IMG/VR virus record: IMGVR_UViG_3300032050_000188
Location: 1 to 52,727 of that record
From: a virus
Lineage: Duplodnaviria > Caudoviricetes
DNA: 52,727 bases
Reading direction: 5' to 3' (one strand)
Under the pieces are notes generated by a model. That model saw nothing but the letters and a program-made list of their open reading frames with translations. It ran no database searches and was not told the DNA's origin. Positions 25,598-48,776 of the stretch are shown in pieces. Each line of letters starts with the position of its first letter. Within the stretch, counting starts at the first letter, position 1. Position numbers and translations under genes: made by a program.

Positions 25598-26967
25598 TGA
25601 CTATCTGGTCAACCATCGTCAAGCGCTTCAAAGCGCCGTCATTGCCTAAACCGGAAACGCAGTACGAGCGCGTTTACTTTGACAGTCTCGTCAACATTCT
25701 GCGGTTGTACTTCAACCAGCTAGACAACCTGCTGGAGCAGATCGTGGCGACAACAAACGGCGTGGTGCCTGTAAGTATTGGCGGGACGAACGTAGATGCG
25801 TTTGGCAGGGTACGTGTTAGCCAGCCCTACACGTTGTTTGACTCCCAAAACCGTTACGCTATCGACAATCAGTTCGACACCAGCACGGCTACTGGGGGTT
25901 CAACCACGTACCTGCCCAATGAAGCCTCGGTGCGGATGGATGTCACCACCTCAAGTGGCTCTGAAGTTGTAAGGCAGACTTACAGGTGCATGCCGTACCA
26001 GCCCGGTAAGGGCCTGTTGATGCTGGGCACGTTCGTGATGAACTCGCCCAAGACAGGACTCCGTCAACGGATGGGGTACTTTGGCGCTCAGAACGGCGTC
26101 TTCATCCAGCAGAACGACAGCACCGTTTCCTTCGTCCTTCGGACTTACATCTCAGGCTCCGTGAGCGATGCGCGGGCAGTCAACCAAGCCGACTGGAACG
26201 GCGACAAACTTAACGGCACTGGAGACTCAGGGTATACCCTTGATCTGACCAAAGCGCAGATTTTGTGGACGGACTTTGAGTGGCTGGGAGTCGGGTCTGT
26301 TCGGTGTGGGTTCATCATTGATGGTGAGTACATCGTCTGCCACACGTTTGAGAATGCAAACGAAGTTACTTCTGTTTACATGACCACGGCAATTCTGCCG
26401 GTGCGCTACGAGATCACCAACACCGCAGCAACGGCAAGCGCTTCGTCCATGAAGCAGATTTGTGCCTCCGTAGTTTCTGAAGGCGGCTATGAGCAGACAT
26501 CCATTGAGCACGTAGCGCGTAGAACTGCAACGCTGACCGGGATCAGTACGACCTTTGTGCCTTTGGTTTCCATCCGGCTTGCTTCTACGGCGTTAAACGC
26601 CGTGGTGCTGCCTGCCAAATTTAACGTGATGCCAACCTCAACGGGGGATGACTTTGAGGTAGTTCTGGCTAAGAACTGTACCGGGCTGACATCGGCCTCT
26701 TGGGCTGCGGTAGCAAGTGATGCAAATGTGGAGATGGATACTTCTGCCACTGCTATGACGCTGGGCACCATCGTGGATATCCAGTACGTAAAGTCCACCA
26801 ATCAGTCCAGCGGGACGATCAACCAGACTGCCGGGTACAACTGGGATCTTCAGTTGGGGTCGTCCTTGACGGGGACGAGCGATATCTATACGCTGGGCAT
26901 CCGGGTGCTGTCAGGCTCCTCTGGTGCGGCCATCGGGTCTTTGACCTTCTACGATTTGACGCAATGA
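25597..26967 (+). CDS. Tail-associated protein
   Basis: LRLYFNQLD N-terminal helix, DAFGR.RVS.P.TLFD, YQPGK, EWLGVG.VR.GF beta domain. Confidence 0.6.
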   Translation: MTIWSTIVKRFKAPSLPKPETQYERVYFDSLVNILRLYFNQLDNLLEQIVATTNGVVPVSIGGTNVDAFGRVRVSQPYTLFDSQNRYAIDNQFDTSTATGGSTTYLPNEASVRMDVTTSSGSEVVRQTYRCMPYQPGKGLLMLGTFVMNSPKTGLRQRMGYFGAQNGVFIQQNDSTVSFVLRTYISGSVSDARAVNQADWNGDKLNGTGDSGYTLDLTKAQILWTDFEWLGVGSVRCGFIIDGEYIVCHTFENANEVTSVYMTTAILPVRYEITNTAATASASSMKQICASVVSEGGYEQTSIEHVARRTATLTGISTTFVPLVSIRLASTALNAVVLPAKFNVMPTSTGDDFEVVLAKNCTGLTSASWAAVASDANVEMDTSATAMTLGTIVDIQYVKSTNQSSGTINQTAGYNWDLQLGSSLTGTSDIYTLGIRVLSGSSGAAIGSLTFYDLTQ

Positions 26968-29900
26968 TCCCACGCCTTCAAACCGAGTACGAAGTAGAAG
27001 ACGCAGCGGACGAAGACGAACTGCGTCGGATTGTGCGCGGCGCTGCGCCTGCGCCTAGCCCCGCTCCGGCTCCGGCCCCTGCTGCCTCCACCACAGACTG
27101 GATGTCAAACACCCCCACGGGTTGGGGCGGGTTTACTGGCGAGGAAAAGATACAGTATTTCAACCAACATGGGATAACGCCTGAGCAACTAGCGCCTTAC
27201 GCCACCCCTGAAGAGATCCAGTATTTCTATGACCACATGGGGTACACGGTAGGGAAGCCTACTACTGCCCCTGCTCCAACTGTTGCTCCTGCTCCTCCTT
27301 TAACGCCATTTGACGTTTTTAAGCAGGATCTGTTTACAACAGAAATGTTGCCAACTGGAGCATCTCCGGAAACTGGAGCAGATCAGTTTCAGGCTGGCGC
27401 AAGAAGTTACCAACTAGGAAATCAAACCGTTGTCCCTGACGATCAAGGTGGCTACGTTGTTAACACGCCGACTGCGCAGGATGGCATTTACAAAGCCGAA
27501 CGCTTTGATGCTTCTGGAAAGAAAATTGGCGAGTTCATCAATGACGCTCGCAATACGGACCTGCAAGATTTAGCTCAGTTAGCCACATTTGCCCTTGGCG
27601 TTGGCCCATTAGGTGGGATGCTCGGCAGCACTGTTGCTGGAGCACTAGGTATACCTGTAGCCACTGCAACATCAGCAGGGCTGACTGCCGCCCAACTAGC
27701 GGCGCTTGGAACTACAGTTGGCAGCGCAGGACTTGGTATCCTGCAGGGCCAAGACCCACTGGATGTCCTTCAAAACGCAATCAGGGCAGGTGCTACAGCG
27801 TTCCTGCCCAGCCAAGTCTCGTCTTTCATCCCATCGACAGGCACAGCAGCGCTTGATGCTGCGCTTAAGACTGCCACTGAAGCAGGTGTACGTACTGCTG
27901 TAAACGGCGGGGATGTTGAGAGCGCAGTTATTGGTTCGTTGGTTAACAGCGGTGTCGGAGCTGCTACGGGGGCGACAGGACTCCCACCAGAACTTGTTAA
28001 CGCGGCAATTAATGTTGCCAAGTCTGGCGGCGATCCGCAGAAAATATTTAACGCGGTAGTTAGCGCTGGCCCTGCAATTCAAGGTCTTCAGAACTACTAC
28101 AGCAAGACAGACACAGGTGACGAAACTGCCCGCCTTACGGCCCGGTATGGTACTGCATTTGATAATTTTAATTCATATCTAAAACAAGTAGCTGCAAACG
28201 CAGAGCCGTTTGAACCAACGCAATTTGCATCCCCAGAACAAGCAAGTATCTTTGACAATTTTGTAGAACAGTTTGCAAATGGGGCCGGAAGAGCGCCTGA
28301 CGCTGACGAAACTACGTTGTTATTGGCACTAGCCAACCCTGATTTAGCCAACAAGTTAAATACAACAGTTACAGATACTGGCACATCTGCATTACATGAA
28401 CTATTAAATAAAAAACCGCAAGCAGCATCATTGCTACAAACAATACTAGAAAGAACCCCAGGACAGGGTGATTTATTAGAGTTGTTAAAAAAACCAGTTC
28501 AATCTGGTGTGGCACAAACACCAGCATTGCCGCAGGCGGCAATGACAGCAAGAGATTTATTTAGGGGTGCCGGAAGTGAATACACCAATGTTTACCCTGG
28601 TGCTTTATTAACTTCAGGTACTGGTGGTCAAGGATGGTTTGCGGGTCCAGGAGCAGCTACGTTTGCGTCAGAAATGATGGGTCTAATGTCAGATCCAACC
28701 CTGACAGCAGAAGAGCGCGCATTTTTTACTGACCAGCTACGCCAAGCAGCGATGAAACCGGAGCTTGTCAATCAAGTACCGGGGTTGGCAACGTATAACC
28801 CATACATTTCGGATACGTCTAGGACACGAGAAGGTACATCTGCTACAAGCGCAGGCGGGGGGAAAGATGGCGGAGGTAAAGATAATACTGGTAGCGACGG
28901 GGGTGTAACCACACTGCCACCTTTTGTTACCGCTGGCACAAGAATTGCAAACCCTGCTGCCATTGATGCATTAATTGACGTTATTGGGGGAAGCTCTGTA
29001 GATCCTATTACCGGGTCTGTAATCCCAGATGGCGGGAATCAATTAGATACAGCCACAATAGTTGGGCAAGATGAAGATGGAAACCCTATAACCACAGGTG
29101 ATATTTTGGGGGGTTCCGCGTCTATACCTACGTCAAGCATTAGGACTGCCGAAAATGTAACAACCCCCGATTTTGATTTGGACACAAGCCAAATAATTAA
29201 CGACTACGTAAACGACATTTTGGGTGGGCAAGCTGTTTCAGATATTCCTTCAGTTACTCCCTCAGGTACGCCAGCGTTAGATGCTTACGAAGTGTTGTGG
29301 ACTAATCCAGTCACCGGGGAAAATGTAACAAAAGAAGACCTTGGAGTAACTGCTACGGTAAGCCCCTCAGTCACGCCATCGGTTGCCCCTGCCGCTGCAC
29401 CCGCCACGGGGACAATTTTGTCAACGGACCCCACGCAGGGCACGGCGCTGGTGGTTGATCCCAGCGGGAACACCAAAGTTGTTGATGTCTCACCCGACTC
29501 CAAGCCCGGAGATACCGTAAATATTGGCGCTGCACCAACGCCTGCACCAACGCCTGCGGCTCCTGCTCCTGCTCCCGCGTTGAATCTTTCCACGCCGATT
29601 GCCACTGATCCCGCAACTGGCGAAGTGCTTACGCTTGGCGATGTACTGCCTTCTCCGCCCCCTGCTCCAAGCCCCGCACCAAGCCCCGCACCAAGCCCTG
29701 CTCCTGCTACAACAACGGCATTGGTAACTGCGCCAGCACCTGCTCCGGCACCTAGCCCCGCTCCAAGTCCTGCTCCAAGCCCTGCTCCGGCACCCGCAGT
29801 TGACCTTACAACTCCTGTCGCAGTAGATCCAATAACAGGCGAGACGCTGACACTTGCGGATGTAACGCCTTCGACGCCAGCTCCGGCACCCGCAGAAGTA

Positions 29901-30962
29901 AAGACTGAAGTTGCTGCGCCAAGTCCTGCTCCTGCCGAAGCTCCCGCTCCTAGTCCAGCACCAGCGCCCTCAGAAGCACCTGCGCCCGCTCCAGCCCCCG
30001 CTAAAGTTACCGCTCCTGCTGAGGCACCGGCTCCAAGTCCTGCTTCAACGGAAGCGCCTGCACCAGCGCCGAGTACAACTGAGACCAAGACGGAAGCCCC
30101 GGCACCTGCCGCGCCATCTCCCGCGCCTGCCCCAACGACGACTGAAACCAAAACAGAAGCACCCGCTCCAGCCCCCACAACCACGGAAACCAAAACGGAA
30201 GCGCCGGCTCCCGCCCCGGCAACTACGGAAACTAGGACTGAGGCACCTGCGCCTGCTCCGAGCACAACGGAAACAAAGACCGAGGCACCTGCTCCGGCAC
30301 CTACGACCACTGAAATTAAGACTGAGGCACCCGCTCCTGCTCCGACGACAACTGAGACTAAAACAGAGGCTCCTGCACCTGCCCCAAGCACAACGGAAAC
30401 TAAGACCGAAGCACCTGCTCCGGCACCTAGTCCTGCACCGGCTCCTGCAGAAGTAACTACCGCAGCGCCGGCTCCTGCACCAGCACCCGCGCCAACAACT
30501 CAAGCTCCTACACCTGCGCCTCCTCCGGCTCAACCGCCTGCACAACCTCCAGCGCAGCCACCGTCTCAGCCCCCCGCACAACCTCCCGCGACCACACCCC
30601 CTGGAGAGGACGTTCTGCCGCCTGTGACAGAGGAAGAGTTGCGCGAGATTGTTTCCGGGCCTCCACCGGCACCGCCTGCGCCAACACCTGCGCCCCCAGC
30701 ACCAACGCCTGCGCCTCCCGCACCTACGCCGGCACCTCCTGCGCCGACAGTTAAACCTCCAGCGGTTAAACCAACTAGCCCTGCGCCGTCTCCTGCGGCA
30801 CAATTGGCTATGCCTAAGATGACGCCAGAGTTGGCTAACTTCATTCAAGAACTGATGCAGACGGACGAAGCAGATCTGCTCCAGTTGACCACCGCGCTCA
30901 AAGCAGAGCGTGAAGAAAAACGTGAAGGCTTGCGTGGCAAGCTGAAATCTAGAAAGGCTTGA
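26964..30962 (+). CDS. Large Pro/Ala/Thr-rich putative internal virion protein
   Basis: 1332 aa; hydrophobic Gly/Ala helices; long PAPAP and TTETKTEAPAPA repeats. Confidence 0.55.
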   Translation: MIPRLQTEYEVEDAADEDELRRIVRGAAPAPSPAPAPAPAASTTDWMSNTPTGWGGFTGEEKIQYFNQHGITPEQLAPYATPEEIQYFYDHMGYTVGKPTTAPAPTVAPAPPLTPFDVFKQDLFTTEMLPTGASPETGADQFQAGARSYQLGNQTVVPDDQGGYVVNTPTAQDGIYKAERFDASGKKIGEFINDARNTDLQDLAQLATFALGVGPLGGMLGSTVAGALGIPVATATSAGLTAAQLAALGTTVGSAGLGILQGQDPLDVLQNAIRAGATAFLPSQVSSFIPSTGTAALDAALKTATEAGVRTAVNGGDVESAVIGSLVNSGVGAATGATGLPPELVNAAINVAKSGGDPQKIFNAVVSAGPAIQGLQNYYSKTDTGDETARLTARYGTAFDNFNSYLKQVAANAEPFEPTQFASPEQASIFDNFVEQFANGAGRAPDADETTLLLALANPDLANKLNTTVTDTGTSALHELLNKKPQAASLLQTILERTPGQGDLLELLKKPVQSGVAQTPALPQAAMTARDLFRGAGSEYTNVYPGALLTSGTGGQGWFAGPGAATFASEMMGLMSDPTLTAEERAFFTDQLRQAAMKPELVNQVPGLATYNPYISDTSRTREGTSATSAGGGKDGGGKDNTGSDGGVTTLPPFVTAGTRIANPAAIDALIDVIGGSSVDPITGSVIPDGGNQLDTATIVGQDEDGNPITTGDILGGSASIPTSSIRTAENVTTPDFDLDTSQIINDYVNDILGGQAVSDIPSVTPSGTPALDAYEVLWTNPVTGENVTKEDLGVTATVSPSVTPSVAPAAAPATGTILSTDPTQGTALVVDPSGNTKVVDVSPDSKPGDTVNIGAAPTPAPTPAAPAPAPALNLSTPIATDPATGEVLTLGDVLPSPPPAPSPAPSPAPSPAPATTTALVTAPAPAPAPSPAPSPAPSPAPAPAVDLTTPVAVDPITGETLTLADVTPSTPAPAPAEVKTEVAAPSPAPAEAPAPSPAPAPSEAPAPAPAPAKVTAPAEAPAPSPASTEAPAPAPSTTETKTEAPAPAAPSPAPAPTTTETKTEAPAPAPTTTETKTEAPAPAPATTETRTEAPAPAPSTTETKTEAPAPAPTTTEIKTEAPAPAPTTTETKTEAPAPAPSTTETKTEAPAPAPSPAPAPAEVTTAAPAPAPAPAPTTQAPTPAPPPAQPPAQPPAQPPSQPPAQPPATTPPGEDVLPPVTEEELREIVSGPPPAPPAPTPAPPAPTPAPPAPTPAPPAPTVKPPAVKPTSPAPSPAAQLAMPKMTPELANFIQELMQTDEADLLQLTTALKAEREEKREGLRGKLKSRKA
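29655..30795 (+). repeat. Coding tandem repeats (APSP, APAPxTTETKTE, PPAQ, PPAPT units)
   Basis: About eight 12-aa APAPxTTETKTE units at ~30055-30420, flanked by shorter Pro-rich repeats. Confidence 0.9.
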
Positions 30963-33865
30963 TCATGTCTGACGAGTTGGACCGCCTGGGTGAAGTTACT
31001 GGCCCCGCAACAATGACAGGGACCGAATATCAAGATTATTTGTCGGCGGCCCCAAACCTTTCTGGCCTCACCAGCCTGCTAACTCCGTTCAAAGGCATCT
31101 TTGACCGCTTGAAGTCTGGCAACACCACGGCCAATGATGTAAACGCGGCGCTAGGTGTACTTGGTTTGATCATGCCCAGTCTGAACAGACCTCAGACCGC
31201 CGGGTGGAAAGGCTCCATCGACATGAACAAGCAGTTCACCCGAACGCCGATTGCTCAGCCGGAGTACAAACCGTACGCTCAGAGTGCTTCGCCTGTGATG
31301 GGGCGACAGTTCTTTACTTCCTCGTATAGCGCTGCCCCCGCTGCGCCTCCTGCTGCCGGTGGTGCGTTGCCTCCACCCGCTACGCCTCCTGCTACAAATC
31401 CTGATCTGGACAGTCCATCTTCTACTGGCGGTAAGGCCAAAGGTGGTATTGCATCGCTGCGTAAATTTGAAGGTGGCGGCGATGTTGGCCAACCAAAGGC
31501 AGGCCCTCAGTTCTATGACTACCACGTTGGCGCAAACGCCAGAATGGTGGATGTGCCCGGTATTGAAAAGCCGGTGCTGATGTTCTTTGACATTCCTAAC
31601 AACCGAGTTGTTGTCAGCGACGAAGGGTACTGGAACCCCAACGCTCCAATTGGGGAAGACCTAAACAAAGCCGTTGCTTGGGCGCGTGATCAAGGACTCC
31701 AGGCGGGCGTGGTTGTGTCGCCATATTCTTGGGATGCGTTTGGTAAAGACGCAATTGGCGAAGACCTTGAGTCCGGCTCCGCGCATCCTCGCTCCATGCC
31801 CGGTGCATCCTTTGACCAGTTGAAGGATTACATGAACGCTGCGGATTTTGTTGTGACTGATCCATATGTTGTCAGCGCACAAACCGCTACGCCGGGAGTT
31901 CAAGAGAAACTGATCCAGATCACCGGTATGATCGGTGATCATGCGCAGGAAACTAATAAGCCCGCATGGCTGGTGCTTGGTGGATCAACCGCTCCTGAGG
32001 GCACCGATCCAAACCTGATTTACAACTACACAGACAATTTGCTTGCCAATACGGCGAACAAGTTTAATCAAGTGTCTGTGTTTGAAGGGACGCGAGATCT
32101 ACAGCCGGGAGCATATTTGCCAACGTGGGATTATTTGCAAGCGTCAAATGTTCTTGCAAAACACGGCATTCAACCAACAGGCACTTACGGACAGGCGTAT
32201 GAAAACCAAACCTCAGTTCCTGCTACGCCCTATGTTGGGTATGACGTAGGCAGCATAAAAGTTGGATCAGTGCAGGACTTTTTGCAAGGTGCAGGAACAT
32301 CATCACAAGCGCATTTCCAGCCTGGAGTGCATCTTGGTAACACGCCTGTTAATCAACCCGCCGCTCTCACTGGTCTTGCAGGGTCGCTTCCTTCCGGGTG
32401 GTCGGGCTACGATGCCGGCCAAAAGATTGATTGGTACAACCAAAACCAAGTGACGCCTGATCAGTTGCTCGGTGCTGGAGTGCAGCAAGATGAGCTTGAT
32501 TGGATGGGCACACAAGGCTATCTTGGCGGCCAGCAGCAACCTTCGCAACCAATAGCGCAACCTGCGCAACCTATGGCTCAGCCTATGGCTCAGCAAACTG
32601 CTGCGCAACCGGCATCTCAACCACAGACCCCTCAAACTCCGCAGCGATTCCCCATGCCTAATTTTCAACTTGGACAAGGGGAAGAAGTTGAAGCCGCCCA
32701 AGGTGGCCTGATGGGTCTTGCCCGAGGTGGCAAGTTGCCACCTAGGTATCTCCGAGGCCAAACTGATGGCATGGCAGACAAGATCCCGAGTAACATCGAC
32801 GGTGTGCAGCCTGCCAAATTGAGCCACGGTGAGTTCGTGATTCCCGCTGATGTGGTCTCACATCTGGGTAATGGCAACTCTGATGCTGGCGCAAAGGTTC
32901 TCTACGGCATGATGGATCGTGTGCGTAAAGCTCGGACAGGGACCAAGAAGCAAGGCCGTCAGATCAACCCGGAAAAATTTACACCGGGCGGCATCGCTGG
33001 TTACGCTGGTGGTGGCGCGGTTGCTTTCAATGCTGGTGGTGCTGCCCCCGCACCGCCTACGGCCCCGCTTGGAACTTCCACTGAGACCAACATCTCTTCA
33101 TGGGCAGGCCCGTATGTGGGTGACATGCTCAGTAAGACATCTGCTCTTACTAACACACCGTATCAAGCCTACCAAGGACCGATGGTCGCCGGGACGGCTC
33201 CTCTGCAAAGCAAGGTGTTCAGCGGCCTAGAAGGTTTGAACTTCCCCGGCCAACTGGGGCAGTCGTTCTCAGCACAAGGTGCTTATCAACTTCCAAGCAT
33301 GACTCCGGGTGGTATGACCGGGCAAGCAACTGGTCCGACCGGGGTTGCCTCTCAGTACATGAATCCGTACCTGAGTGCAGTGCTGACCCCTCAACTGGAT
33401 GAACTGCGTCGGCAAAGCCAGATCACGCAGATGGGGACGGCTGGAAAACTGGCTCAGGCTGGTGCGTTTGGCGGATCCCGTCAAGCCATCATGGATGCTG
33501 AGACGCAACGTAATCTTCTGCAGGAGCAGAACAAAGCTATCGGTACTGGGTATGCAAACGCCTATGACCGGGCGATGGGGCAGTTCAATGTGGAGCAAGG
33601 CCAAGCCAAGACCCTTGCTGACATGATGGCCGGAGCGGGTCAGCAGCAGCGTGGCATTGAGCAAGAAGGTATCACTGCTCTTCAAAGGCAGTACGAGACG
33701 GAGTTGCTTGATCCATACACCAAGCTGCGGTTCCAGAAGGAAATGCTTCAGGGTCTGCCTGTTGCAACGGCTGCGACGACGGCGAATACGAGTCAGTTGG
33801 GTGAAGTTAGGGGTGGTTTGTCAGACTTGGTAAAGAGTCTTGAGGCACTGGGCCTGAAGGGTTGA
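30959..33865 (+). CDS. Internal / ejection protein with several xxxGG motifs and an inserted globular domain
   Basis: G.TDGMADKIP, A.LSHGEFVIPADVVSHLGNG, YMNPY, GAFGGSR motifs; start may be ATG 30965. Confidence 0.65.
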   Translation: MIMSDELDRLGEVTGPATMTGTEYQDYLSAAPNLSGLTSLLTPFKGIFDRLKSGNTTANDVNAALGVLGLIMPSLNRPQTAGWKGSIDMNKQFTRTPIAQPEYKPYAQSASPVMGRQFFTSSYSAAPAAPPAAGGALPPPATPPATNPDLDSPSSTGGKAKGGIASLRKFEGGGDVGQPKAGPQFYDYHVGANARMVDVPGIEKPVLMFFDIPNNRVVVSDEGYWNPNAPIGEDLNKAVAWARDQGLQAGVVVSPYSWDAFGKDAIGEDLESGSAHPRSMPGASFDQLKDYMNAADFVVTDPYVVSAQTATPGVQEKLIQITGMIGDHAQETNKPAWLVLGGSTAPEGTDPNLIYNYTDNLLANTANKFNQVSVFEGTRDLQPGAYLPTWDYLQASNVLAKHGIQPTGTYGQAYENQTSVPATPYVGYDVGSIKVGSVQDFLQGAGTSSQAHFQPGVHLGNTPVNQPAALTGLAGSLPSGWSGYDAGQKIDWYNQNQVTPDQLLGAGVQQDELDWMGTQGYLGGQQQPSQPIAQPAQPMAQPMAQQTAAQPASQPQTPQTPQRFPMPNFQLGQGEEVEAAQGGLMGLARGGKLPPRYLRGQTDGMADKIPSNIDGVQPAKLSHGEFVIPADVVSHLGNGNSDAGAKVLYGMMDRVRKARTGTKKQGRQINPEKFTPGGIAGYAGGGAVAFNAGGAAPAPPTAPLGTSTETNISSWAGPYVGDMLSKTSALTNTPYQAYQGPMVAGTAPLQSKVFSGLEGLNFPGQLGQSFSAQGAYQLPSMTPGGMTGQATGPTGVASQYMNPYLSAVLTPQLDELRRQSQITQMGTAGKLAQAGAFGGSRQAIMDAETQRNLLQEQNKAIGTGYANAYDRAMGQFNVEQGQAKTLADMMAGAGQQQRGIEQEGITALQRQYETELLDPYTKLRFQKEMLQGLPVATAATTANTSQLGEVRGGLSDLVKSLEALGLKG

Positions 33866-33868
33866 AAT

Positions 33869-35437
33869 ATGTACGCACAACAATCTAGAACCGGGGTACC
33901 AGAACTTGATGCTGTTCTTGCAACAGCACAGATGGTCACACCCGAACAGACGCCCACTGTTGCTGCACAAGTAGCTCAGGCCGCGCAACAGAAATTATCC
34001 CCTCCAACAACACCCCCCGGCATCGGTGCTCTGATGCCCGGTGTTAGGCAGCAAGCCGTAAACGCGGCGCAGGCTGCGCAGCCCGTAACACAGGCTCAAA
34101 TGCAACAAGCACTGCAACAAAGCCAAATGGCGCAGCAAAGCCAAGGCGTGGCTGGGTTGCCTGCTGACAACATGCGCACGTTCACTGCGGCGCAGGGTGG
34201 TGTTGTTGGTTATGCGGGGAAAGAAGGGTCATATGTTGATCCGCAGTTCCCTTCTGTGTACGAAAATTACGTTGAGCCGACACGCGAAGCAAGGACAGGC
34301 CGAGAAGAAGATGAGTTGTTTGGGCCGATGAAGTCTGAAAGACAACGGGTAATTGAAGCCGTGGCTGAAGAACTTTTGGGGCCAATGACAAAGGAGAGAC
34401 TGGCTGCTGCTCCTCAGAGGCAAACGCAGCAAAGAAGCGAAGCGACTCCTGCGCCCCGTCCGCCAGCACCTCGCCCACCGGCACCTCGTCCTCCCGCTCC
34501 ACCAGCGGCACCGTCAGCGCCTCAAGGAGGCATTGCACAGCTTGCTGCACGCCCAACATATGACACGGCGGGTATCGCCGTTGCTGGTGCGCCTTACATG
34601 ACAGCAGGAGAAGGTGATGTCAACCGACTTCGTGAAGCAGAAGGTAAACGTGCTGAGTTTGAAAAGACACTGCCTGACCTGAGTGCCAAAGGGATCGAAG
34701 CGCTACGTCAACGTATGGCAGATGTTGAATCGGCGGAAGCGTCAAGAAAAGAAAGTCTTGGGTTAGACCGTGTAATCCAACAACTTTTGGGCGGGATGCA
34801 AGGTGCTGGCGGCGCGGCGCGTGCAGACATTCAGTTTATGAATGCTCAAAAAGCCGCAGCGGATGCCTTTAGTCAAGCAAGACTTGAAAATCAACGGGCA
34901 CAACTACTGCTTGAAAAGGCCCAACAAGAGCGGCAACTTGGTAGGCTCGACCGTGCGATTGCTCTTGAGAAGGAAGCCTCCGCTCTCATGGAGAAGGCCC
35001 GTGACAACGCACTCAAGGCGCAGGAAATTCGACAAAGAAGCGCAGGGGCTCAGTATGAAGGTGCGGTGAAATTGCGCGGCCAAGACATCACGGCACAGAC
35101 CGCTGCGGAAGACCGTGCGAATGCTTTGAAGATTGCAAATATCCGTAATACAGCAGGGGAAGCGAAAGGTGCTCTCACTCCTCGGGATATCGCTCGACTC
35201 CGTGCACAAGCTGAAAAAGATGTGGACGCACAACTGGGGAAAGATCCCAGGTACGTATCGATGAAAGTGCGTGACCCCGCCAACGCGGAAACGTACAGGA
35301 CTAGAATGATCGACGAGCGGTTGAAGCGGGTGCTGGCTGAAGAAGGGTATGGTGCCGCTGCTTCCGCACCCCCACCTGCTGCAGGGGTTTCTCCCGAACT
35401 TCTTAGCCAGTTCAAAGTTCGTCCTGTAGGACAGTAA
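33869..35437 (+). CDS. Internal / ejection protein (helical)
   Basis: 522 aa, Gln/Ala-rich coiled coil, AAQGGVVGYA motif. Confidence 0.6.
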   Translation: MYAQQSRTGVPELDAVLATAQMVTPEQTPTVAAQVAQAAQQKLSPPTTPPGIGALMPGVRQQAVNAAQAAQPVTQAQMQQALQQSQMAQQSQGVAGLPADNMRTFTAAQGGVVGYAGKEGSYVDPQFPSVYENYVEPTREARTGREEDELFGPMKSERQRVIEAVAEELLGPMTKERLAAAPQRQTQQRSEATPAPRPPAPRPPAPRPPAPPAAPSAPQGGIAQLAARPTYDTAGIAVAGAPYMTAGEGDVNRLREAEGKRAEFEKTLPDLSAKGIEALRQRMADVESAEASRKESLGLDRVIQQLLGGMQGAGGAARADIQFMNAQKAAADAFSQARLENQRAQLLLEKAQQERQLGRLDRAIALEKEASALMEKARDNALKAQEIRQRSAGAQYEGAVKLRGQDITAQTAAEDRANALKIANIRNTAGEAKGALTPRDIARLRAQAEKDVDAQLGKDPRYVSMKVRDPANAETYRTRMIDERLKRVLAEEGYGAAASAPPPAAGVSPELLSQFKVRPVGQ

Positions 35438-41325: not shown

Positions 41326-41362
41326 GAAAAAATCCCCCGGAGGCTTGCGCCGTGCCGGGGGT
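41326..41362 (-). terminator. Terminator of the leftward operon at the convergence point
   Basis: CCCCCGG...CCGGGGG stem followed by ATTTTTT on the minus strand. Confidence 0.75.
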
Positions 41363-41405
41363 AATCATCAGGAGAAACAAGCTGGCAACTGAACCAGCGG
41401 GCGCA

Positions 41406-41645
41406 TTATGGGGTACACCAGACCCGAATGCCAAGCACTCCGTTCTCGATCCGCTCCGCCCAGACCAGCGGGTAACGGTTCTTGTAGTGCCGATCCACAG
41501 CAGCGAAGGTCTCCTTGTGCTTCAAGCTGGGGATAAAGAAGCTCTGCAAAGGTGCCAGCGCGTCGGGGATATCAAACTCCGCCCCCTTGATCCGCAGAGG
41601 GCGTCTGTAGTAGTTAAGCCTCTTCTGCAATAGGGATGAAGTCAT
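41406..41645 (-). CDS. Small conserved phage protein
   Basis: SFFIP.L and ENGVLGIRVW motifs; start uncertain. Confidence 0.6.
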   Translation of the reverse strand: MTSSLLQKRLNYYRRPLRIKGAEFDIPDALAPLQSFFIPSLKHKETFAAVDRHYKNRYPLVWAERIENGVLGIRVWCTP

Positions 41646-44743: not shown

Positions 44744-45688
44744 TCAGTCGTCAGCGTCATCACCCCAGTCGGACAGGATCGACTTCACGCTCACAGGTGC
44801 TGCCGCTTTGGCTTCCCGCACCACGGGCTCCTCGACCACCTCAACGGCGGCGGGTTCAGCCTTCTTGGGCTTCTCCACCTTGAACTCAGCCTTGGCAGCG
44901 GGCGCTGCGGCTTTGGGCTGGATGAACACAGGCTGCTCCACAGGAGCGGGCGCAGGGGCAGCGGCTTCCGGCGTACCGTCAATTTCCGCAACGGTCATCG
45001 TGACTGCTTCGATGGCGGCAGGCTCATCCATGCGGGCCTTGACCATCTCCCACTCGTGCTCTTCCAGCGGGCGCACGGCGCTGAACACCAGCTTCATGTT
45101 GGCAGAAGTGTCGAAGCGCATCTCGGTCACCACTGCGTTGACTTCGATACCGTGACCGCCAAGGAAGCGTGCGTACTGCTGCAAGCCCATCTTGCGACCT
45201 TCGCCCTGGGCAAAGAGGCTCGACGCGTTGATGCTCATCGCGTAGATGTCACCCTGGATGTCGGAAGCCAGCAGCACTGCCAGACGACGGCTGTAACGGC
45301 AGGCCTTGGAGTCACCCTGCCCAGAGCCCTTGATGTCTTGCGGGCAACCCGTGCAGGACTTGTGCTGCGGGTTCTTGACGTTGGCGTGGGGCTTGGTGCT
45401 GTCATCAGACCAGCAGAGGGGGCGACCCTTCACACCCTTCTCATACTGAGAGCCGTAGAACGTACGGGCGTTGTTGTCCGACGCACGGACGACGATGATG
45501 TTCATGGCGCGGTCTTCGTTCACCGCGACCGACTTGCCACCCACCAGCATCGTGAAGACGTTGTTGTCAATACTGATGCGCTTGCTGCTGCCACCGCCCA
45601 TCAGGGACTTGGTTAGCGAACTCAACTCACCCCTGCGCAGATGTGCAGGCAGTGCGTTACCGGATTGGAAAAGGGTCAGATCAGACAT
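44744..45688 (-). CDS. Putative ssDNA-binding / annealing protein
   Basis: P.CWS.D, C..CPQ..KGSG...KACRY.RRLAV, Pro/Ala linker, acidic tail WGDDADD. Confidence 0.6.
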   Translation of the reverse strand: MSDLTLFQSGNALPAHLRRGELSSLTKSLMGGGSSKRISIDNNVFTMLVGGKSVAVNEDRAMNIIVVRASDNNARTFYGSQYEKGVKGRPLCWSDDSTKPHANVKNPQHKSCTGCPQDIKGSGQGDSKACRYSRRLAVLLASDIQGDIYAMSINASSLFAQGEGRKMGLQQYARFLGGHGIEVNAVVTEMRFDTSANMKLVFSAVRPLEEHEWEMVKARMDEPAAIEAVTMTVAEIDGTPEAAAPAPAPVEQPVFIQPKAAAPAAKAEFKVEKPKKAEPAAVEVVEEPVVREAKAAAPVSVKSILSDWGDDADD

Positions 45689-46089
45689 TAGGATCTCCTA
45701 ACAGTTACTGTGTACTTGGATTCGACGTTCATACCCTTGGGCATTTGGTCGGGGTTTGCTTTGAGGTATTCCCCCATCGCACGTTGCGCAATGCGTCTCT
45801 CTAGCAGTTCAAGCGCGTTGTTCTCCTTGATGAAGTTGTGCATAGCCTCCCAGTCGGAGGTCCAGTAGCGTGTATCTACGCCACGAATTACCACGCCAAC
45901 ACCGGGGATGCTGACGTTGCCACCTGCACGCTTGCAGGCTTCTAGCAGGAAGTTCTCAACTACCCGCATCTGCTCTTTGATCTCTTTGTCTTTCGTCTCG
46001 TACTCAGCACTCAACACACTACGCGCATCGCGCATCTTGATGTAGGCCTTGACGAGCTTTTCAGTTGGAGGAAGTTCTTGGTCTTCCAT
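45688..46089 (-). CDS. Conserved phage protein of the replication module
   Basis: LVKAYIKMRD coiled coil, YWTSDW...FI, LLERRIAQ; strong SD CAGGAG. Confidence 0.7.
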   Translation of the reverse strand: MEDQELPPTEKLVKAYIKMRDARSVLSAEYETKDKEIKEQMRVVENFLLEACKRAGGNVSIPGVGVVIRGVDTRYWTSDWEAMHNFIKENNALELLERRIAQRAMGEYLKANPDQMPKGMNVESKYTVTVRRS

Positions 46090-46118
46090 GTTGGTCTCCT
46101 GATGAAGTGAGGGGATAA

Positions 46119-46147
46119 AGTTTACATCGCAACTTTTTAGGCGTCAA
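46119..46147 (-). promoter_or_regulatory. sigma70 promoter for the 46089-SSB-HTH-primase genes
   Basis: TTGACG-17 nt-TAAACT; inverted repeat AAAGTT-N8-AACTTT at 46117-46136. Confidence 0.7.
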
Positions 46148-47678
46148 GCTCCTCCCGATAAAGATTGAGCAGGGTGTCCATGTCTTCGGTCTTGAGGTCC
46201 AGCGCGTCATAGAGCTTGCGCTCCACGTTGCAGCCACACAACCTCACGACGAGACAGGGGTTCTTCTGACCTGCCCGGTGCACGCGGGCGTTGGCTTGGT
46301 GCCAAATTTCGTTGGAGGTCACAGGACCCCACCAGACCACGGTGTTCGCTGCGTGTAGGGTCACGCCGTGCGATGCAGCCGCAGGCTGGATGAGCAGGAT
46401 GCGGGGCTCGGGCTGGGTCTGGAAGTTCTTGAAGATCTCCGTGCGGTTGTTGACAGAGACCCCGCCGTGGATCACATCCACTGCGTACCCATCCTTGCGG
46501 AGCCGGTCGCGCAGCACCTCGATGGCGTGCCTGAACGGAACGAAGACCAGCACCTTGTGGGTGCTCTCCTCGATGGCTTCCACCAGCACGTTGTACCGGT
46601 GCGTGATGTCGAACTCCACCGTGTTGCCGTCGTCTGTGTACACCGCGCCACTGGCTACCTGCAATAGCTTGTTCAGGTTCGTCGCAGCATTAACGGAAGT
46701 GACGGTCTCCCCTGCCGCTGCCATGATGAACTGATCCTTCAGCATCTTGTAATACTTCGCCTGCTGCGGGGTCAACGACACTTCACGCGTGGTGTACAGC
46801 AGTTCAGGCAGGTCCAGGCACTCATCCTTGGTGAAGCGTATCGCGGGTTGAAGCACTCTGTTGACGACCTCCGCTGCGTTCTTCTTCGCCGCCCATTTGA
46901 ACTGGGTGACCTTGTACATCACCTGATCTCTGAAGGAGTAGAAGTGCGGAGGTACGGAGGAAGGATTCAACATACGGGCTATGCCGTATGCGTCTATCGG
47001 AGACTGCGAAGCGGGGGTGCCGGTCGCCATCCATAACCACGTTTCTGGAGTGATGAGTGAGTTGATTGATTTCCATCTTTTAGTTGTAGCAGTCTTCACT
47101 GCATTAGCTTCGTCAATGATGACGAGGTCGAACCCCCCGGCCTTGAGTTCAGGCAGGACTGTCTCTACACCGTCGAAGTTGATGATGACGAACTCAGCCC
47201 CGGAGTTGATGACCTTGACCCGCTTGTCCCTGCTACCGTGTGCTACGTCCACAGTACGGTGCATGATGGTCTTGAACAGGTCCGCCTGCCATGCCGAGTT
47301 CATGATCGACAGCGGGCAGATGACCAGCACGCGTTTGACGTAGCCCTTGTCCAGCAGGTAGTCAGCAGCCCACGCGAAGCTGGCTGTCTTGCCCGTGCCT
47401 GGGTCGTTGAAGCAGAACGCCCTGCGGTGCAGGGTCATGAACGCTGCGGTCTCCCGTTGGTGGTCGAACGGCTTGAACAGCCCCGGCCATTTGTAGCGCC
47501 CCTCGATGGGTGAGGGGACGTTCTTGACCCCGAGGTTCTTCAGGACCTGAGCTTCCTCAAGCCCCCACCGCACCAGCACCTGCCCATCGTCCAGACGCCT
47601 GCTCTTGGGTATGGTGTTGAGCACCCGCTCGGGGTGCCGCAGTTTGAGCAGGAGCGCTTTACTGTCGATGATTTGCAT
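46137..47678 (-). CDS. SNF2-family helicase
   Basis: PGTGKT, VICPLS, IIDEA, ATGTP, HGVTL, QANARVHRAGQ. Confidence 0.9.
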   Translation of the reverse strand: MQIIDSKALLLKLRHPERVLNTIPKSRRLDDGQVLVRWGLEEAQVLKNLGVKNVPSPIEGRYKWPGLFKPFDHQRETAAFMTLHRRAFCFNDPGTGKTASFAWAADYLLDKGYVKRVLVICPLSIMNSAWQADLFKTIMHRTVDVAHGSRDKRVKVINSGAEFVIINFDGVETVLPELKAGGFDLVIIDEANAVKTATTKRWKSINSLITPETWLWMATGTPASQSPIDAYGIARMLNPSSVPPHFYSFRDQVMYKVTQFKWAAKKNAAEVVNRVLQPAIRFTKDECLDLPELLYTTREVSLTPQQAKYYKMLKDQFIMAAAGETVTSVNAATNLNKLLQVASGAVYTDDGNTVEFDITHRYNVLVEAIEESTHKVLVFVPFRHAIEVLRDRLRKDGYAVDVIHGGVSVNNRTEIFKNFQTQPEPRILLIQPAAASHGVTLHAANTVVWWGPVTSNEIWHQANARVHRAGQKNPCLVVRLCGCNVERKLYDALDLKTEDMDTLLNLYREELDA

Positions 47679-47859
47679 TTGTTTTGTAGTAGGTCATGAC
47701 AGCGCCGACAGCATCATGTACGGTAACGCCGCACAGTTGTGCTACGCTTGCGTACACATTTAGTGTTACTTCTAAAGCCTCTCGATTGTCCAAATCTTGG
47801 TCTTGAAGCATTTGAAGCATGAACCCGGCGATTTCTTTAAGTTCAGTTTGTGTAGCCAT
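47659..47859 (-). CDS. Hypothetical protein
   Basis: 66 aa, fills the gap, SD GAGG. Confidence 0.55.
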   Translation of the reverse strand: MATQTELKEIAGFMLQMLQDQDLDNREALEVTLNVYASVAQLCGVTVHDAVGAVMTYYKTNANHRQ

Positions 47860-47861
47860 GA

Positions 47862-48395
47862 TTACCTCAGTGGGAACTTAGCTTCTTCCTGCATCTTCAG
47901 CAGACGCAGGGCTTGGGTCTTGGCATCGTCCAGCGCATGATGTCCGGTGCCTACTCGCTCGATCTTGGTCTTCATGAACATCGCAGCGATGGTGCGGTAG
48001 CAGCGATCATTCCAGTAGTGCCAAGGCGTATCCATCTTCAGCGCCCGGTAGGCAGCGGCCACCAGCGTGTTGTCAAAGTTCGCTCCGTTACCCCAGACCA
48101 ACACCGTGTCAATTGGCGGCATCCACATGGTGAACTTAGTCAGCGCGACATTCAGGCTGAACTCACCCTTGAACGCAGCGGCGCGAGCCTCAGCAGACTG
48201 CTTACCCCACCACTCCAACGTGCTCTTCTGTGCACGAAGTCCTGCTGCTTTGCAGGACTCAGGGTCAATGGTGACGTAGAATTCTTCACCCAACCCGTTC
48301 TCATCGAACTTCACAGCACCGATACTGAGGATGGTATCCCCCGGCCTAGTGCCTAGTGTCTCAATGTCCATCATTACGTTCTTCATTACCGACAT
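47862..48395 (-). CDS. DEDDh 3'-5' exonuclease
   Basis: MDIETLG, WGNGANFD, RCYRT, HHALDDA; start ATG 48395 with SD CAGGAG. Confidence 0.85.
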   Translation of the reverse strand: MSVMKNVMMDIETLGTRPGDTILSIGAVKFDENGLGEEFYVTIDPESCKAAGLRAQKSTLEWWGKQSAEARAAAFKGEFSLNVALTKFTMWMPPIDTVLVWGNGANFDNTLVAAAYRALKMDTPWHYWNDRCYRTIAAMFMKTKIERVGTGHHALDDAKTQALRLLKMQEEAKFPLR

Positions 48396-48475
48396 TTTTA
48401 TCTCCTGATGCAGATAGCAGAACGGCCCGATAGGGGGAACCCATCGAGCCAAGACCCTCGGTCTAGCGCCGAGGA

Positions 48476-48505
48476 AACGAAAGCATAGCCCCAGCGGGGC
48501 TATGC
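48476..48505 (-). terminator. Rho-independent terminator
   Basis: GCATAGCCCC-GCT-GGGGCTATGC then TTTCGTTT. Confidence 0.7.
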
Positions 48506-48506
48506 G

Positions 48507-48776
48507 TCAACGCCCGCCTGAGCGGGGACCTTTGAAATTTTTCGCGCTGTTGGCGCTGAAGCTCTTGAGCCGCACGTTTCCGGGCTTGCTCTTCCCACCA
48601 TCCTTGATGGGGGTCACATGATCGAGGGCTTTGCCCTTTCGAGAATCCTTACCGTGTTCCTTGTCCCAGGCACGGCGTGCACGCTGCCGCTCGGACTGCT
48701 TGGCTCTGCCTCCGTTGGCGAGGAAGTCAGCGTACTCCTTCTTGTGGTCTCGGTCGGACATATCCTTGTAGGGCAT
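48507..48776 (-). CDS. Small HNH-like protein
   Basis: R..ARR...GK.LDHVTPI.DGG....NVRL....N. Confidence 0.6.
   Translation of the reverse strand: MPYKDMSDRDHKKEYADFLANGGRAKQSERQRARRAWDKEHGKDSRKGKALDHVTPIKDGGKSKPGNVRLKSFSANSAKNFKGPRSGGR

Follow-up and report, generated by a model that had tools for sequence, protein, structure and literature searches.

The window, i.e. the whole stretch of 52,727 nt that was analysed, is a 52.7-kb viral contig with an estimated completeness of 84%. The plus strand carries the terminase, portal, head, tail, and virion genes, the last of which is a 1961-aa ORF that ends at 41324. The minus strand carries the replication module, which encodes a DNA polymerase, a PD-(D/E)XK nuclease, an HNH-like protein, a 3'-5' exonuclease, a 66-aa ORF, an SNF2 helicase, the 133-aa product of gene 46089, a 314-aa protein, a 77-aa HTH protein, a DUF927 primase-helicase, and a 79-aa ORF. 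The two modules converge on an 81-nt gap and the element described here sits in this gap. No DNA match to the window was found among 50,697 phage records, and the best protein match of the primase, in Pseudomonas phage Rollin, has 26% identity. The 79-aa ORF matched no family, and its relatives were found by tblastn in syntenic loci. Among the late genes, three ORFs of 1332, 968, and 522 aa (26964-35437, plus strand) matched no PHROG family at E up to 1e-5. The features of the gap and of the end of the replication operon are as follows.

41406..41645, minus strand: 79-aa ORF, the final gene of the replication operon, with the putative small-RNA promoter inside its last 10 codons
41429..41434, minus strand: -35 hexamer TTGGCA, within Leu-Gly-Ile codons of the 79-aa ORF
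41405..41410, minus strand: -10 hexamer CATAAT, overlapping the TAA stop codon (41408-41406) of the 79-aa ORF
41327..41398, minus strand: proposed small RNA of ~72 nt, from the base of the hairpin through the last base of the U-run
41381..41398, minus strand: 5' hairpin, GCTGGT / loop TCAGTT / GCCAGC
41362..41380, minus strand: single-stranded linker (the seed), CU-rich and predicted to be unpaired
41375-41365, minus strand: anti-Shine-Dalgarno (anti-SD) 11-mer TCTCCTGATGA, inside the linker
41327..41361, minus strand: intrinsic terminator, CCCCCGG...CCGGGGG (41361-41334) followed by T6 (41332-41327)

A preliminary description of this stretch had placed the hairpin, the 11-mer, and the ribosome-binding site (RBS) words that match it, and all of these coordinates and matches proved correct on the minus strand. 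The hairpin is composed of GCTGG (41398-41394), TTCAGTTG (41393-41386), and CCAGC (41385-41381). The predicted MFE fold of the RNA consists of this hairpin, an open linker, and the terminator (-31.2 kcal/mol, z = -3.2), and the mean probability of being unpaired for the linker core is 0.89 in the window. The terminator is directional because the plus strand has no T-run; read on that strand, 41327-41361 has an A-run before the terminator and no T-run after it. The U-run at the 3' end is compatible with dependence on an RNA chaperone (Hfq or ProQ). Of 24 sequencing runs listed, 3 are recorded as RNA and each of these contains part of the stretch. Four RNA-library runs were examined as contigs, from which ends, strand, and level are unreadable. 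One of these runs covers all 30 bins (7.8 kb) evenly, both convergent genes included, and one 151-nt contig spans 41278-41431. No joint linking the element to either RBS was found in the contigs of the four runs.

Relatives were collected by protein-anchored scans, which gave 61 loci (L002-L062). The complete gap region is present in the window and in 42 viral or metagenome loci, which together hold 25 distinct sequences; distinct sequences were counted because some loci are the same contig filed in two collections. Among the relatives that have the gap region the identity of the primase ranges from 94% down to 53%, and gene order is kept. All 43 loci have the same layout of stop codon, hairpin, CU-rich stretch with CUCC, GC-rich terminator, and U-run, with L045 and L046 as the exception at the hairpin. 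The terminator, scored by a script as a GC stem with at least four T in a row behind it (4-6), was found in 43/43 loci. A 5' hairpin of 6-12 bp is present in 24 of the 25 distinct sequences and is built from 18 different stems, examples of which are GCTGG/CCAGC, ACTGG/CCAGT, GCCGG/CCGGC, GCCGATT/AGTCGGT, GTCAA/TTGAC, and GCTGAGT/ACTCGGC. This hairpin is more stable on the minus strand in 19/24 cases by virtue of G.U pairs. The linker is conserved while the adjoining hairpin sequence turns over, and its CUCC core is predicted to be unpaired (>=0.6) in 22/25 distinct sequences. The hairpin was analysed sequence by sequence because differences in loop length misaligned it in MAFFT and RNAalifold, a combination that recovered the terminator only. 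At the level of sequence, the architecture of the element is shown by this comparison to be conserved.

The 5' hairpin is absent from L045 and L046, which belong to the same clade. In this clade (L045:3070-3126 and L046) the -10 hexamer is followed by 4 nt and then by CUCCUCCUAAGG and the terminator, and this form would represent a minimal version of the RNA of ~50 nt. A pattern scan of viral contigs for the promoter region returned 37 stretches and no new clade: 26 came from contigs already in the set, 2 were new members of known sequence types, and 9 were unrelated AT-rich chance matches. A search of Rfam found no family at its gathering score. The best hit on the element was NsiR1, with 20.6 bits against the 39 needed (E = 1.7), and apart from it nothing was found on the element at E up to 10, the phage C4 antisense RNA included.

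The candidate promoter TTGGCA-18-CATAAT (41434-41405) is sigma-70-like and scores 10/12 in a consensus scan. The scanned 12.5-kb region contains 4 promoter-like matches and shuffled sequences contain 4.0, so the promoter call rests on conservation. The -35 hexamer is TTGGCA in 41/43 loci and the -10 hexamer is CATAAT, TATAGT, or TATGAT (yATrrT) in 42/43, at a fixed spacing of 18 nt. The last residue of the 79-aa ORF (P, A, L, or V) and its stop codon (TAA, TAG, or TGA) vary while the -10 hexamer stays yATrrT. In 31 distinct tails of the coding sequence, the Leu codon under the -35 is CTT in 30 and the Gly codon is GGC in 29, as compared with the 4-5 codons in use at other equally conserved Leu, Gly, Pro, and Arg columns of the same ORF. 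The synonymous sites that spell the -35 are thus frozen, and the comparison shows a constraint of the kind expected for a promoter. A sigma-54 reading of TTGGCA...TCTGG was rejected on inspection by eye, the -12 GC being replaced by the TG of an invariant Trp codon.

The hairpin starts 6-7 nt downstream of the -10 throughout. From this geometry, the primary transcript would therefore be ~72 nt long and would run from 41398, at the foot of the hairpin, to about 41327. The most distant member with the region, L047 (5728-5817), has lost the -35 and -10 inside the ORF; a TATACT is found in a 13-nt insert after its stop codon, still 6 nt before the hairpin. The complement of the L047 seed to gene 46089 (GGAGACGC) extends into the hairpin stem. 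The preliminary description had called the element a candidate 3'-UTR sRNA. It is indeed the 3' end of the operon, but it is probably more than a 3' UTR because the promoter that overlaps the stop codon would start a separate RNA at the hairpin.

These features also bear on whether the motif acts on the opposite strand. Plus-strand read-through transcripts would carry UCAUCAGGAGA, which could be recognised in the same manner as at the two RBSs by the 30S subunit or by a phage translational repressor, or, in a variant of this explanation, could serve as the RBS of a plus-strand gene. Read-through is plausible given a terminator with no T-run on the plus strand, and a 93-aa antisense ORF lies on that strand (41352..41633). 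However, promoter and terminator alike have the opposite orientation, and the hairpin is more stable on the minus strand. Additionally, no ATG, GTG, or TTG is found 3-12 nt downstream in 20/25 distinct sequences, which rules out the variant with an RBS on the opposite strand. A plus-strand RNA motif is therefore considered highly improbable.

The sites that the linker could pair with lie upstream on the same strand, in the replication module.

45688..46089, minus strand: gene 46089 (133 aa), first cistron of the unit that ends at the terminator of the element
46119..46147, minus strand: promoter of the gene-46089 unit, TTGACG-17-TAAACT, overlapping the stop codon of the SNF2 helicase
46095..46105, minus strand: target 1, TCATCAGGAGA, in the SD region of gene 46089; exact complement over 11 nt
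46060..46067, minus strand: CAACTGAA, a complement of the hairpin loop that falls within codons 8-10 of gene 46089
47862..48395, minus strand: 3'-5' exonuclease gene, whose unit continues into the SNF2 helicase
48401..48410, minus strand: target 2, CATCAGGAGA, in the SD region of the exonuclease; complement over 10 nt

Each of the two words lies 5 nt upstream of an ATG, that of gene 46089 at 46089 and that of the exonuclease at 48395. When both strands of the 52.7 kb were searched, the longest complements to the linker were the RBS of gene 46089 (11 nt) and the RBS of the exonuclease (10 nt). The predicted duplexes of the linker with these two RBSs have energies of -19.6 and -17.5 kcal/mol and span the SD, from about -17 to -5. 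With one mismatch or fewer, the 11-mer occurs at only three sites, which are the element and the two RBSs. With up to 2 mismatches it occurs 16 times, as compared with 11.7 +/- 3.1 expected, and is not enriched. In L002 the two RBSs are again the top two complements, with 12 nt at the exonuclease, and in L005 they tie for the longest among three matches of 9 nt. The anti-SD core would pair with any strong SD, and for this reason the specificity would lie in the few bases that flank it. A further 9-nt complement, GGTAATCAT (47858-47866, minus strand), matches the 3' part of the linker (AUGAUUACC) and spans the start codon of the 66-aa ORF (47659..47859), an ORF that was not found in L002.

Taken from this one genome, the sequence makes a moderate case against chance. 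The SD match is placed above chance by its conservation and covariation in relatives, a support that the loop match does not have. The preliminary description had proposed the loop 8-mer as a second seed. The match is real in the window, where 385 of 20,000 shuffles gave one as good (nominal p about 0.02), but it is not conserved: it reaches 8 nt in 2/28 distinct pairs (the window and L020, the latter at a different site) and 7 nt in L002, and is 6 nt or fewer in 25/28. The loop match is probably due to chance, or is at most specific to a clade.

Both targets are the first cistrons after promoter-like non-coding regions. It had been noted earlier that gene 46089 is the first gene after the promoter at 46119-46147, and the comparison agrees: the pattern TTGAC-N-TA[AG]ACT is kept in 43/49 loci, 23-29 nt upstream of the start codon. 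Because this promoter is so near to the start codon, the leader of gene 46089 would be only ~20 nt long, and half of it consists of the complementary word. The exonuclease is preceded by a non-coding stretch of ~110 nt (48396-48510, minus strand) that contains a promoter-like sequence and a terminator-like hairpin. Gene 46089 matches PHROG 13900, 'minor head protein' (E = 1.6e-17), despite its place in the replication module and its early-type promoter, and this label is probably unreliable.

An anti-SD stretch just 5' of the terminator that is complementary to both RBSs, as first seen in the window, was found in 43/43 loci with the region, and its flanks covary with the flanks of the SDs. In the window and L002, the seed UCUCCUGAUG occurs with CAUCAGGAGA at both genes (CATCAGGAGA at the exonuclease). 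The L005 group has the seed CCUAGUGAG with CUCACUAGG at both genes, and in its member L021 a C-to-U change leaves the pair intact as G.U. The L025 group has the seed CUCCUGUG with CACAGGAG at both genes. In L046 the seed CUCCUAAGG occurs with C(C)UUAGGAG at both genes, and CUUAGGAG with CUCCUAAG. In L048, L020, and L034, the seed has CUCC twice (UCUCCCUCC) and the exonuclease has a double word as its counterpart, GGAGnGGAGA (-17 to -19 kcal/mol). The remaining clades have CUCCUAG paired with CUAGGAG. A quick primase tree places the covarying states on separate, well-supported branches, and the coordinated changes of seed and SD flank count as four or five independent events.

Own and permuted pairings of seeds and targets were also compared, in tests whose p-values overstate independence because the clades are related and so are not literal probabilities: for 14 distinct seeds the summed longest match was 220 for own pairs as compared with 173.6 +/- 8.5 (fraction 1e-5), and for 12 clade representatives it was 184 as compared with 153.5 +/- 6.0 (fraction 3.5e-5), or 98 as compared with 83.1 +/- 3.6 when the better of the two targets was taken (fraction 5e-4), while the duplex energy of own pairs was -392.3 kcal/mol as compared with -331.5 +/- 12.1 kcal/mol, a value that 0/100,000 permutations equalled.

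The match is not equally long in every clade. The match to gene 46089, the target within the operon of the element, extends over 11 nt in the window and over 7-9 nt in most clades, and the seed follows the exonuclease site no less faithfully than the gene-46089 site. In several clades the match is no more than the generic 7-mer CTAGGAG. The matches amount to 7 nt at each site in L040 and to 7 and 8 nt at the two sites in L010, and in L017, L020, and L034 the longest exact runs are no better than those of many other 7-mers of the locus. The SD of gene 46089 in L010-L016, L028, and L044 (CCACAGGAGG) matches the seed by only 5-7 nt, and the seed tracks the exonuclease flank (7 nt) alone in L011-L016, L028, and L044. 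The preliminary description held that complementarity should extend beyond the generic core across relatives; this is borne out by the coordinated flanks on four or five branches, but not in the several clades with CTAGGAG only. The best match of the linker is in some loci the RBS of an extra inserted gene (L022:3381, 10 nt; L011:4513, 10 nt; L030:3430, 8 nt), as if newly acquired genes adopted the same SD 'address'. Such matches fit an RNA with multiple targets, though they were not predicted.

It could be argued that the linker is a generic CU-rich spacer whose match to strong SDs is accidental, or the decayed remains of an inverted RBS duplication, given that the single-genome statistics are weak and that many clades show CTAGGAG only. 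Of all the explanations considered this one is the least probable. Neither form of it accounts for coordinated changes on four or five branches, for significant tests of own against cross pairing, or for a linker that is kept while the neighbouring hairpin turns over, and no similarity is found outside the word itself. The relic inverted duplication, which the preliminary description had offered as an alternative, fails in particular on the coordinated changes. At the level of sequence, the complementarity and its covariation are shown by the comparison.

Covariation alone fits a DNA motif as well as it fits an RNA. In such a case the three copies would be 8-11-bp sites, in either orientation, of a phage DNA-binding regulator such as the 77-aa HTH protein, and would co-evolve with that protein instead of with one another at the RNA level. 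Each of the three copies has a promoter-like element upstream, and the operon does contain an HTH gene. We nevertheless consider a DNA site behind three promoters quite unlikely on several grounds. The distance from the -10 to the motif ranges from 4 nt (L045) to about 35 nt among homologues, and the copy in the element is constantly found in the unpaired gap between two RNA structures, next to a hairpin with strand-specific G.U pairs. The conserved core is exactly an SD or an anti-SD. Additionally, many seeds carry CUCC twice and most of the targets lack a matching second copy; L021 retains its pairing through a G.U pair.

Together these results suggest that the element is a gene for a small base-pairing RNA of ~72 nt in a clade of uncultivated tailed phages, and that this RNA masks the RBSs of replication genes; on balance we hold this to be the probable explanation. 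Transcription would start at a sigma-70-type promoter whose -35 lies within the closing codons of the last operon gene and whose -10 lies on that gene's stop codon; transcripts that read through the operon would end in the element too. For the RNA, the predicted fold comprises a 5' hairpin, a CU-rich linker that stays open, and an intrinsic terminator. The linker would present a free anti-SD with 3-7 adjacent clade-specific bases and would pair with the extended SD at the first cistron of each of two transcription units of the replication module, one running from the 3'-5' exonuclease to the SNF2 helicase and the other from gene 46089 to the primase. The SD would be hidden from the 30S subunit, leading to less translation of the first cistron and perhaps, through polarity, of the rest of each unit. 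The outcome would be negative feedback on, or shut-off of, replication functions. We infer the position of the 5' end, that the RNA is a discrete molecule, that the direction of its effect is repression, and that it acts in trans. The phage would then probably use an RNA to lower the translation of two replication genes.

Action in trans is favoured because the second target lies outside the transcript. The element could instead be a purely cis-acting 3' UTR, as in icaR, in which the anti-SD folds back on the SD of gene 46089 within a polycistronic mRNA of ~4.8 kb and controls its translation or decay without a separate sRNA. The unit transcribed from the gene-46089 promoter does end with the element, and the complementarity to the SD of gene 46089 is real. 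However, the exonuclease site belongs to another, upstream unit and is tracked at least as well, the L010-L016 group matches at the exonuclease flank only, and a conserved promoter with frozen synonymous sites stands directly before the hairpin. An effect in cis of this kind would be compatible with a small RNA, but as the sole function of the element it is unlikely.

Several known systems resemble the element in part. OppZ and CarZ of Vibrio cholerae are autoregulatory sRNAs that arise at the 3' ends of operons (Hoyos et al. 2020, described in PMC9438474). Like the element, they have a terminator in common with the operon and, according to the same source, pair with the RBS of a cistron of their own operon, which results in negative feedback (PMC9438474). 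OppZ is there described as cut out by RNase E, without a promoter of its own, and as directed at an internal cistron (PMC9438474), whereas the element has a conserved promoter, would target a first cistron, has a second predicted target in another unit, and is found in a phage; the sequences are unrelated. Because of the conserved promoter, the element would be OppZ-like in its working but not in its type of biogenesis. In the latter respect it is closer to DapZ, whose promoter is described as lying a short way upstream of the preceding gene's stop codon (PMC9438474). DapZ, MicL, and MicX are likewise short seed-bearing RNAs with a promoter embedded in an ORF and a terminator common with the mRNA (PMC9438474), and the sequence of the element has an ORF-embedded promoter, a common terminator, and an accessible covarying seed. 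The three RNAs are presented in that source as chromosomal and stress-regulated with unrelated host mRNAs as targets (PMC9438474), whereas the element has a near-generic anti-SD seed and its predicted targets are the phage's own replication genes.

In the icaR mRNA of Staphylococcus aureus, a UCCCC motif in the 3' UTR is described as pairing with the mRNA's own SD (PMC3868564). The likeness lies in a C/U-rich anti-SD word in a 3' UTR that is complementary to the SD of the same transcript (PMC3868564). The icaR case is monocistronic and intramolecular in that account (PMC3868564), in contrast to the element with its 4.8 kb polycistronic RNA, outside target, and dedicated promoter. The c4 antisense RNA of phages P1 and P7 is reported to act in trans, to block translation around the RBS of a phage mRNA, and to control an antirepressor and immunity through complementary sequences that are probably in loops (PMC12197685). 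It resembles the element as proposed here, being a phage-encoded small RNA that covers a phage RBS (PMC12197685). The element differs from c4 in that its seed is in a linker, its predicted targets are replication genes, and it has no match to c4 in Rfam. RsaE and other UCCC-motif sRNAs of S. aureus are described as using C-rich unpaired motifs to target several SDs (PMC2790875), and these are host RNAs with the motifs in loops (PMC2790875). Their resemblance to the element is one of logic only. In phage T4, RegA binds the SD regions of early mRNAs and RegB cuts at GGAG; both are proteins, and the SD-directed shut-off of early phage mRNAs is again a likeness in logic only. Searches of open-access full text returned no description of a phage sRNA with an anti-SD seed against replication genes. 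The best reading of the sequence is that the element represents a new family of phage small RNAs, outside the named families, that combines a DapZ-like promoter with OppZ-like feedback.

Few sRNAs of lytic or uncultivated phages have predicted targets and fewer have comparative support. In this clade, whose phages come from freshwater and other environments, the case is compact: a 72-nt RNA and two short 5' UTRs, with the natural compensatory variants as a ready mutational series. If the proposal is true, OppZ-like logic exists in phages, where the end of an operon feeds back on its start; a few flanking bases can make a nearly generic anti-SD specific; and the final codons of a gene can hold a promoter under dual constraint. 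Rfam would gain a family as well, and a tool-like orthogonal set of seed and RBS pairs would become available.

A broader role is possible, though we regard it as doubtful. The element may be a 'free anti-Shine-Dalgarno' riboregulator, the equivalent in RNA of the shut-off by RegA and RegB of T4, that reads a short address code next to the SD, and late antisense read-through may remove the RNA and so act as an early-to-late timer. The address code would mark the first cistrons of the replication-module operons, and in some relatives inserted genes, and would co-evolve with the seed by clade. Read-through from the late structural operon would be perfectly antisense to the RNA if the terminator does not stop plus-strand transcription, and an RNA-RNA timer at the convergent junction of the modules would couple the early-to-late switch. 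As a separate observation, late transcripts may extend antisense to both the small RNA and the primase operon.

Several additional features were observed in the leaders of the two target genes. The gene-46089 promoter is, after that of the element, the second promoter in the operon that is written over the end of a gene, and in it (L002-L061 too) the spacer word AAAGTT is also kept in nearly all relatives. In the exonuclease leader, a promoter-like site TTGACG-17-TATGCT overlaps the TGA of the HNH gene as well as a 10-bp hairpin (48505-48483) that is followed by T-rich sequence, and two more hairpins lie upstream of the SD. In distant relatives, a hairpin and a U-rich tract are found directly before the exonuclease SD in an attenuator-like arrangement.
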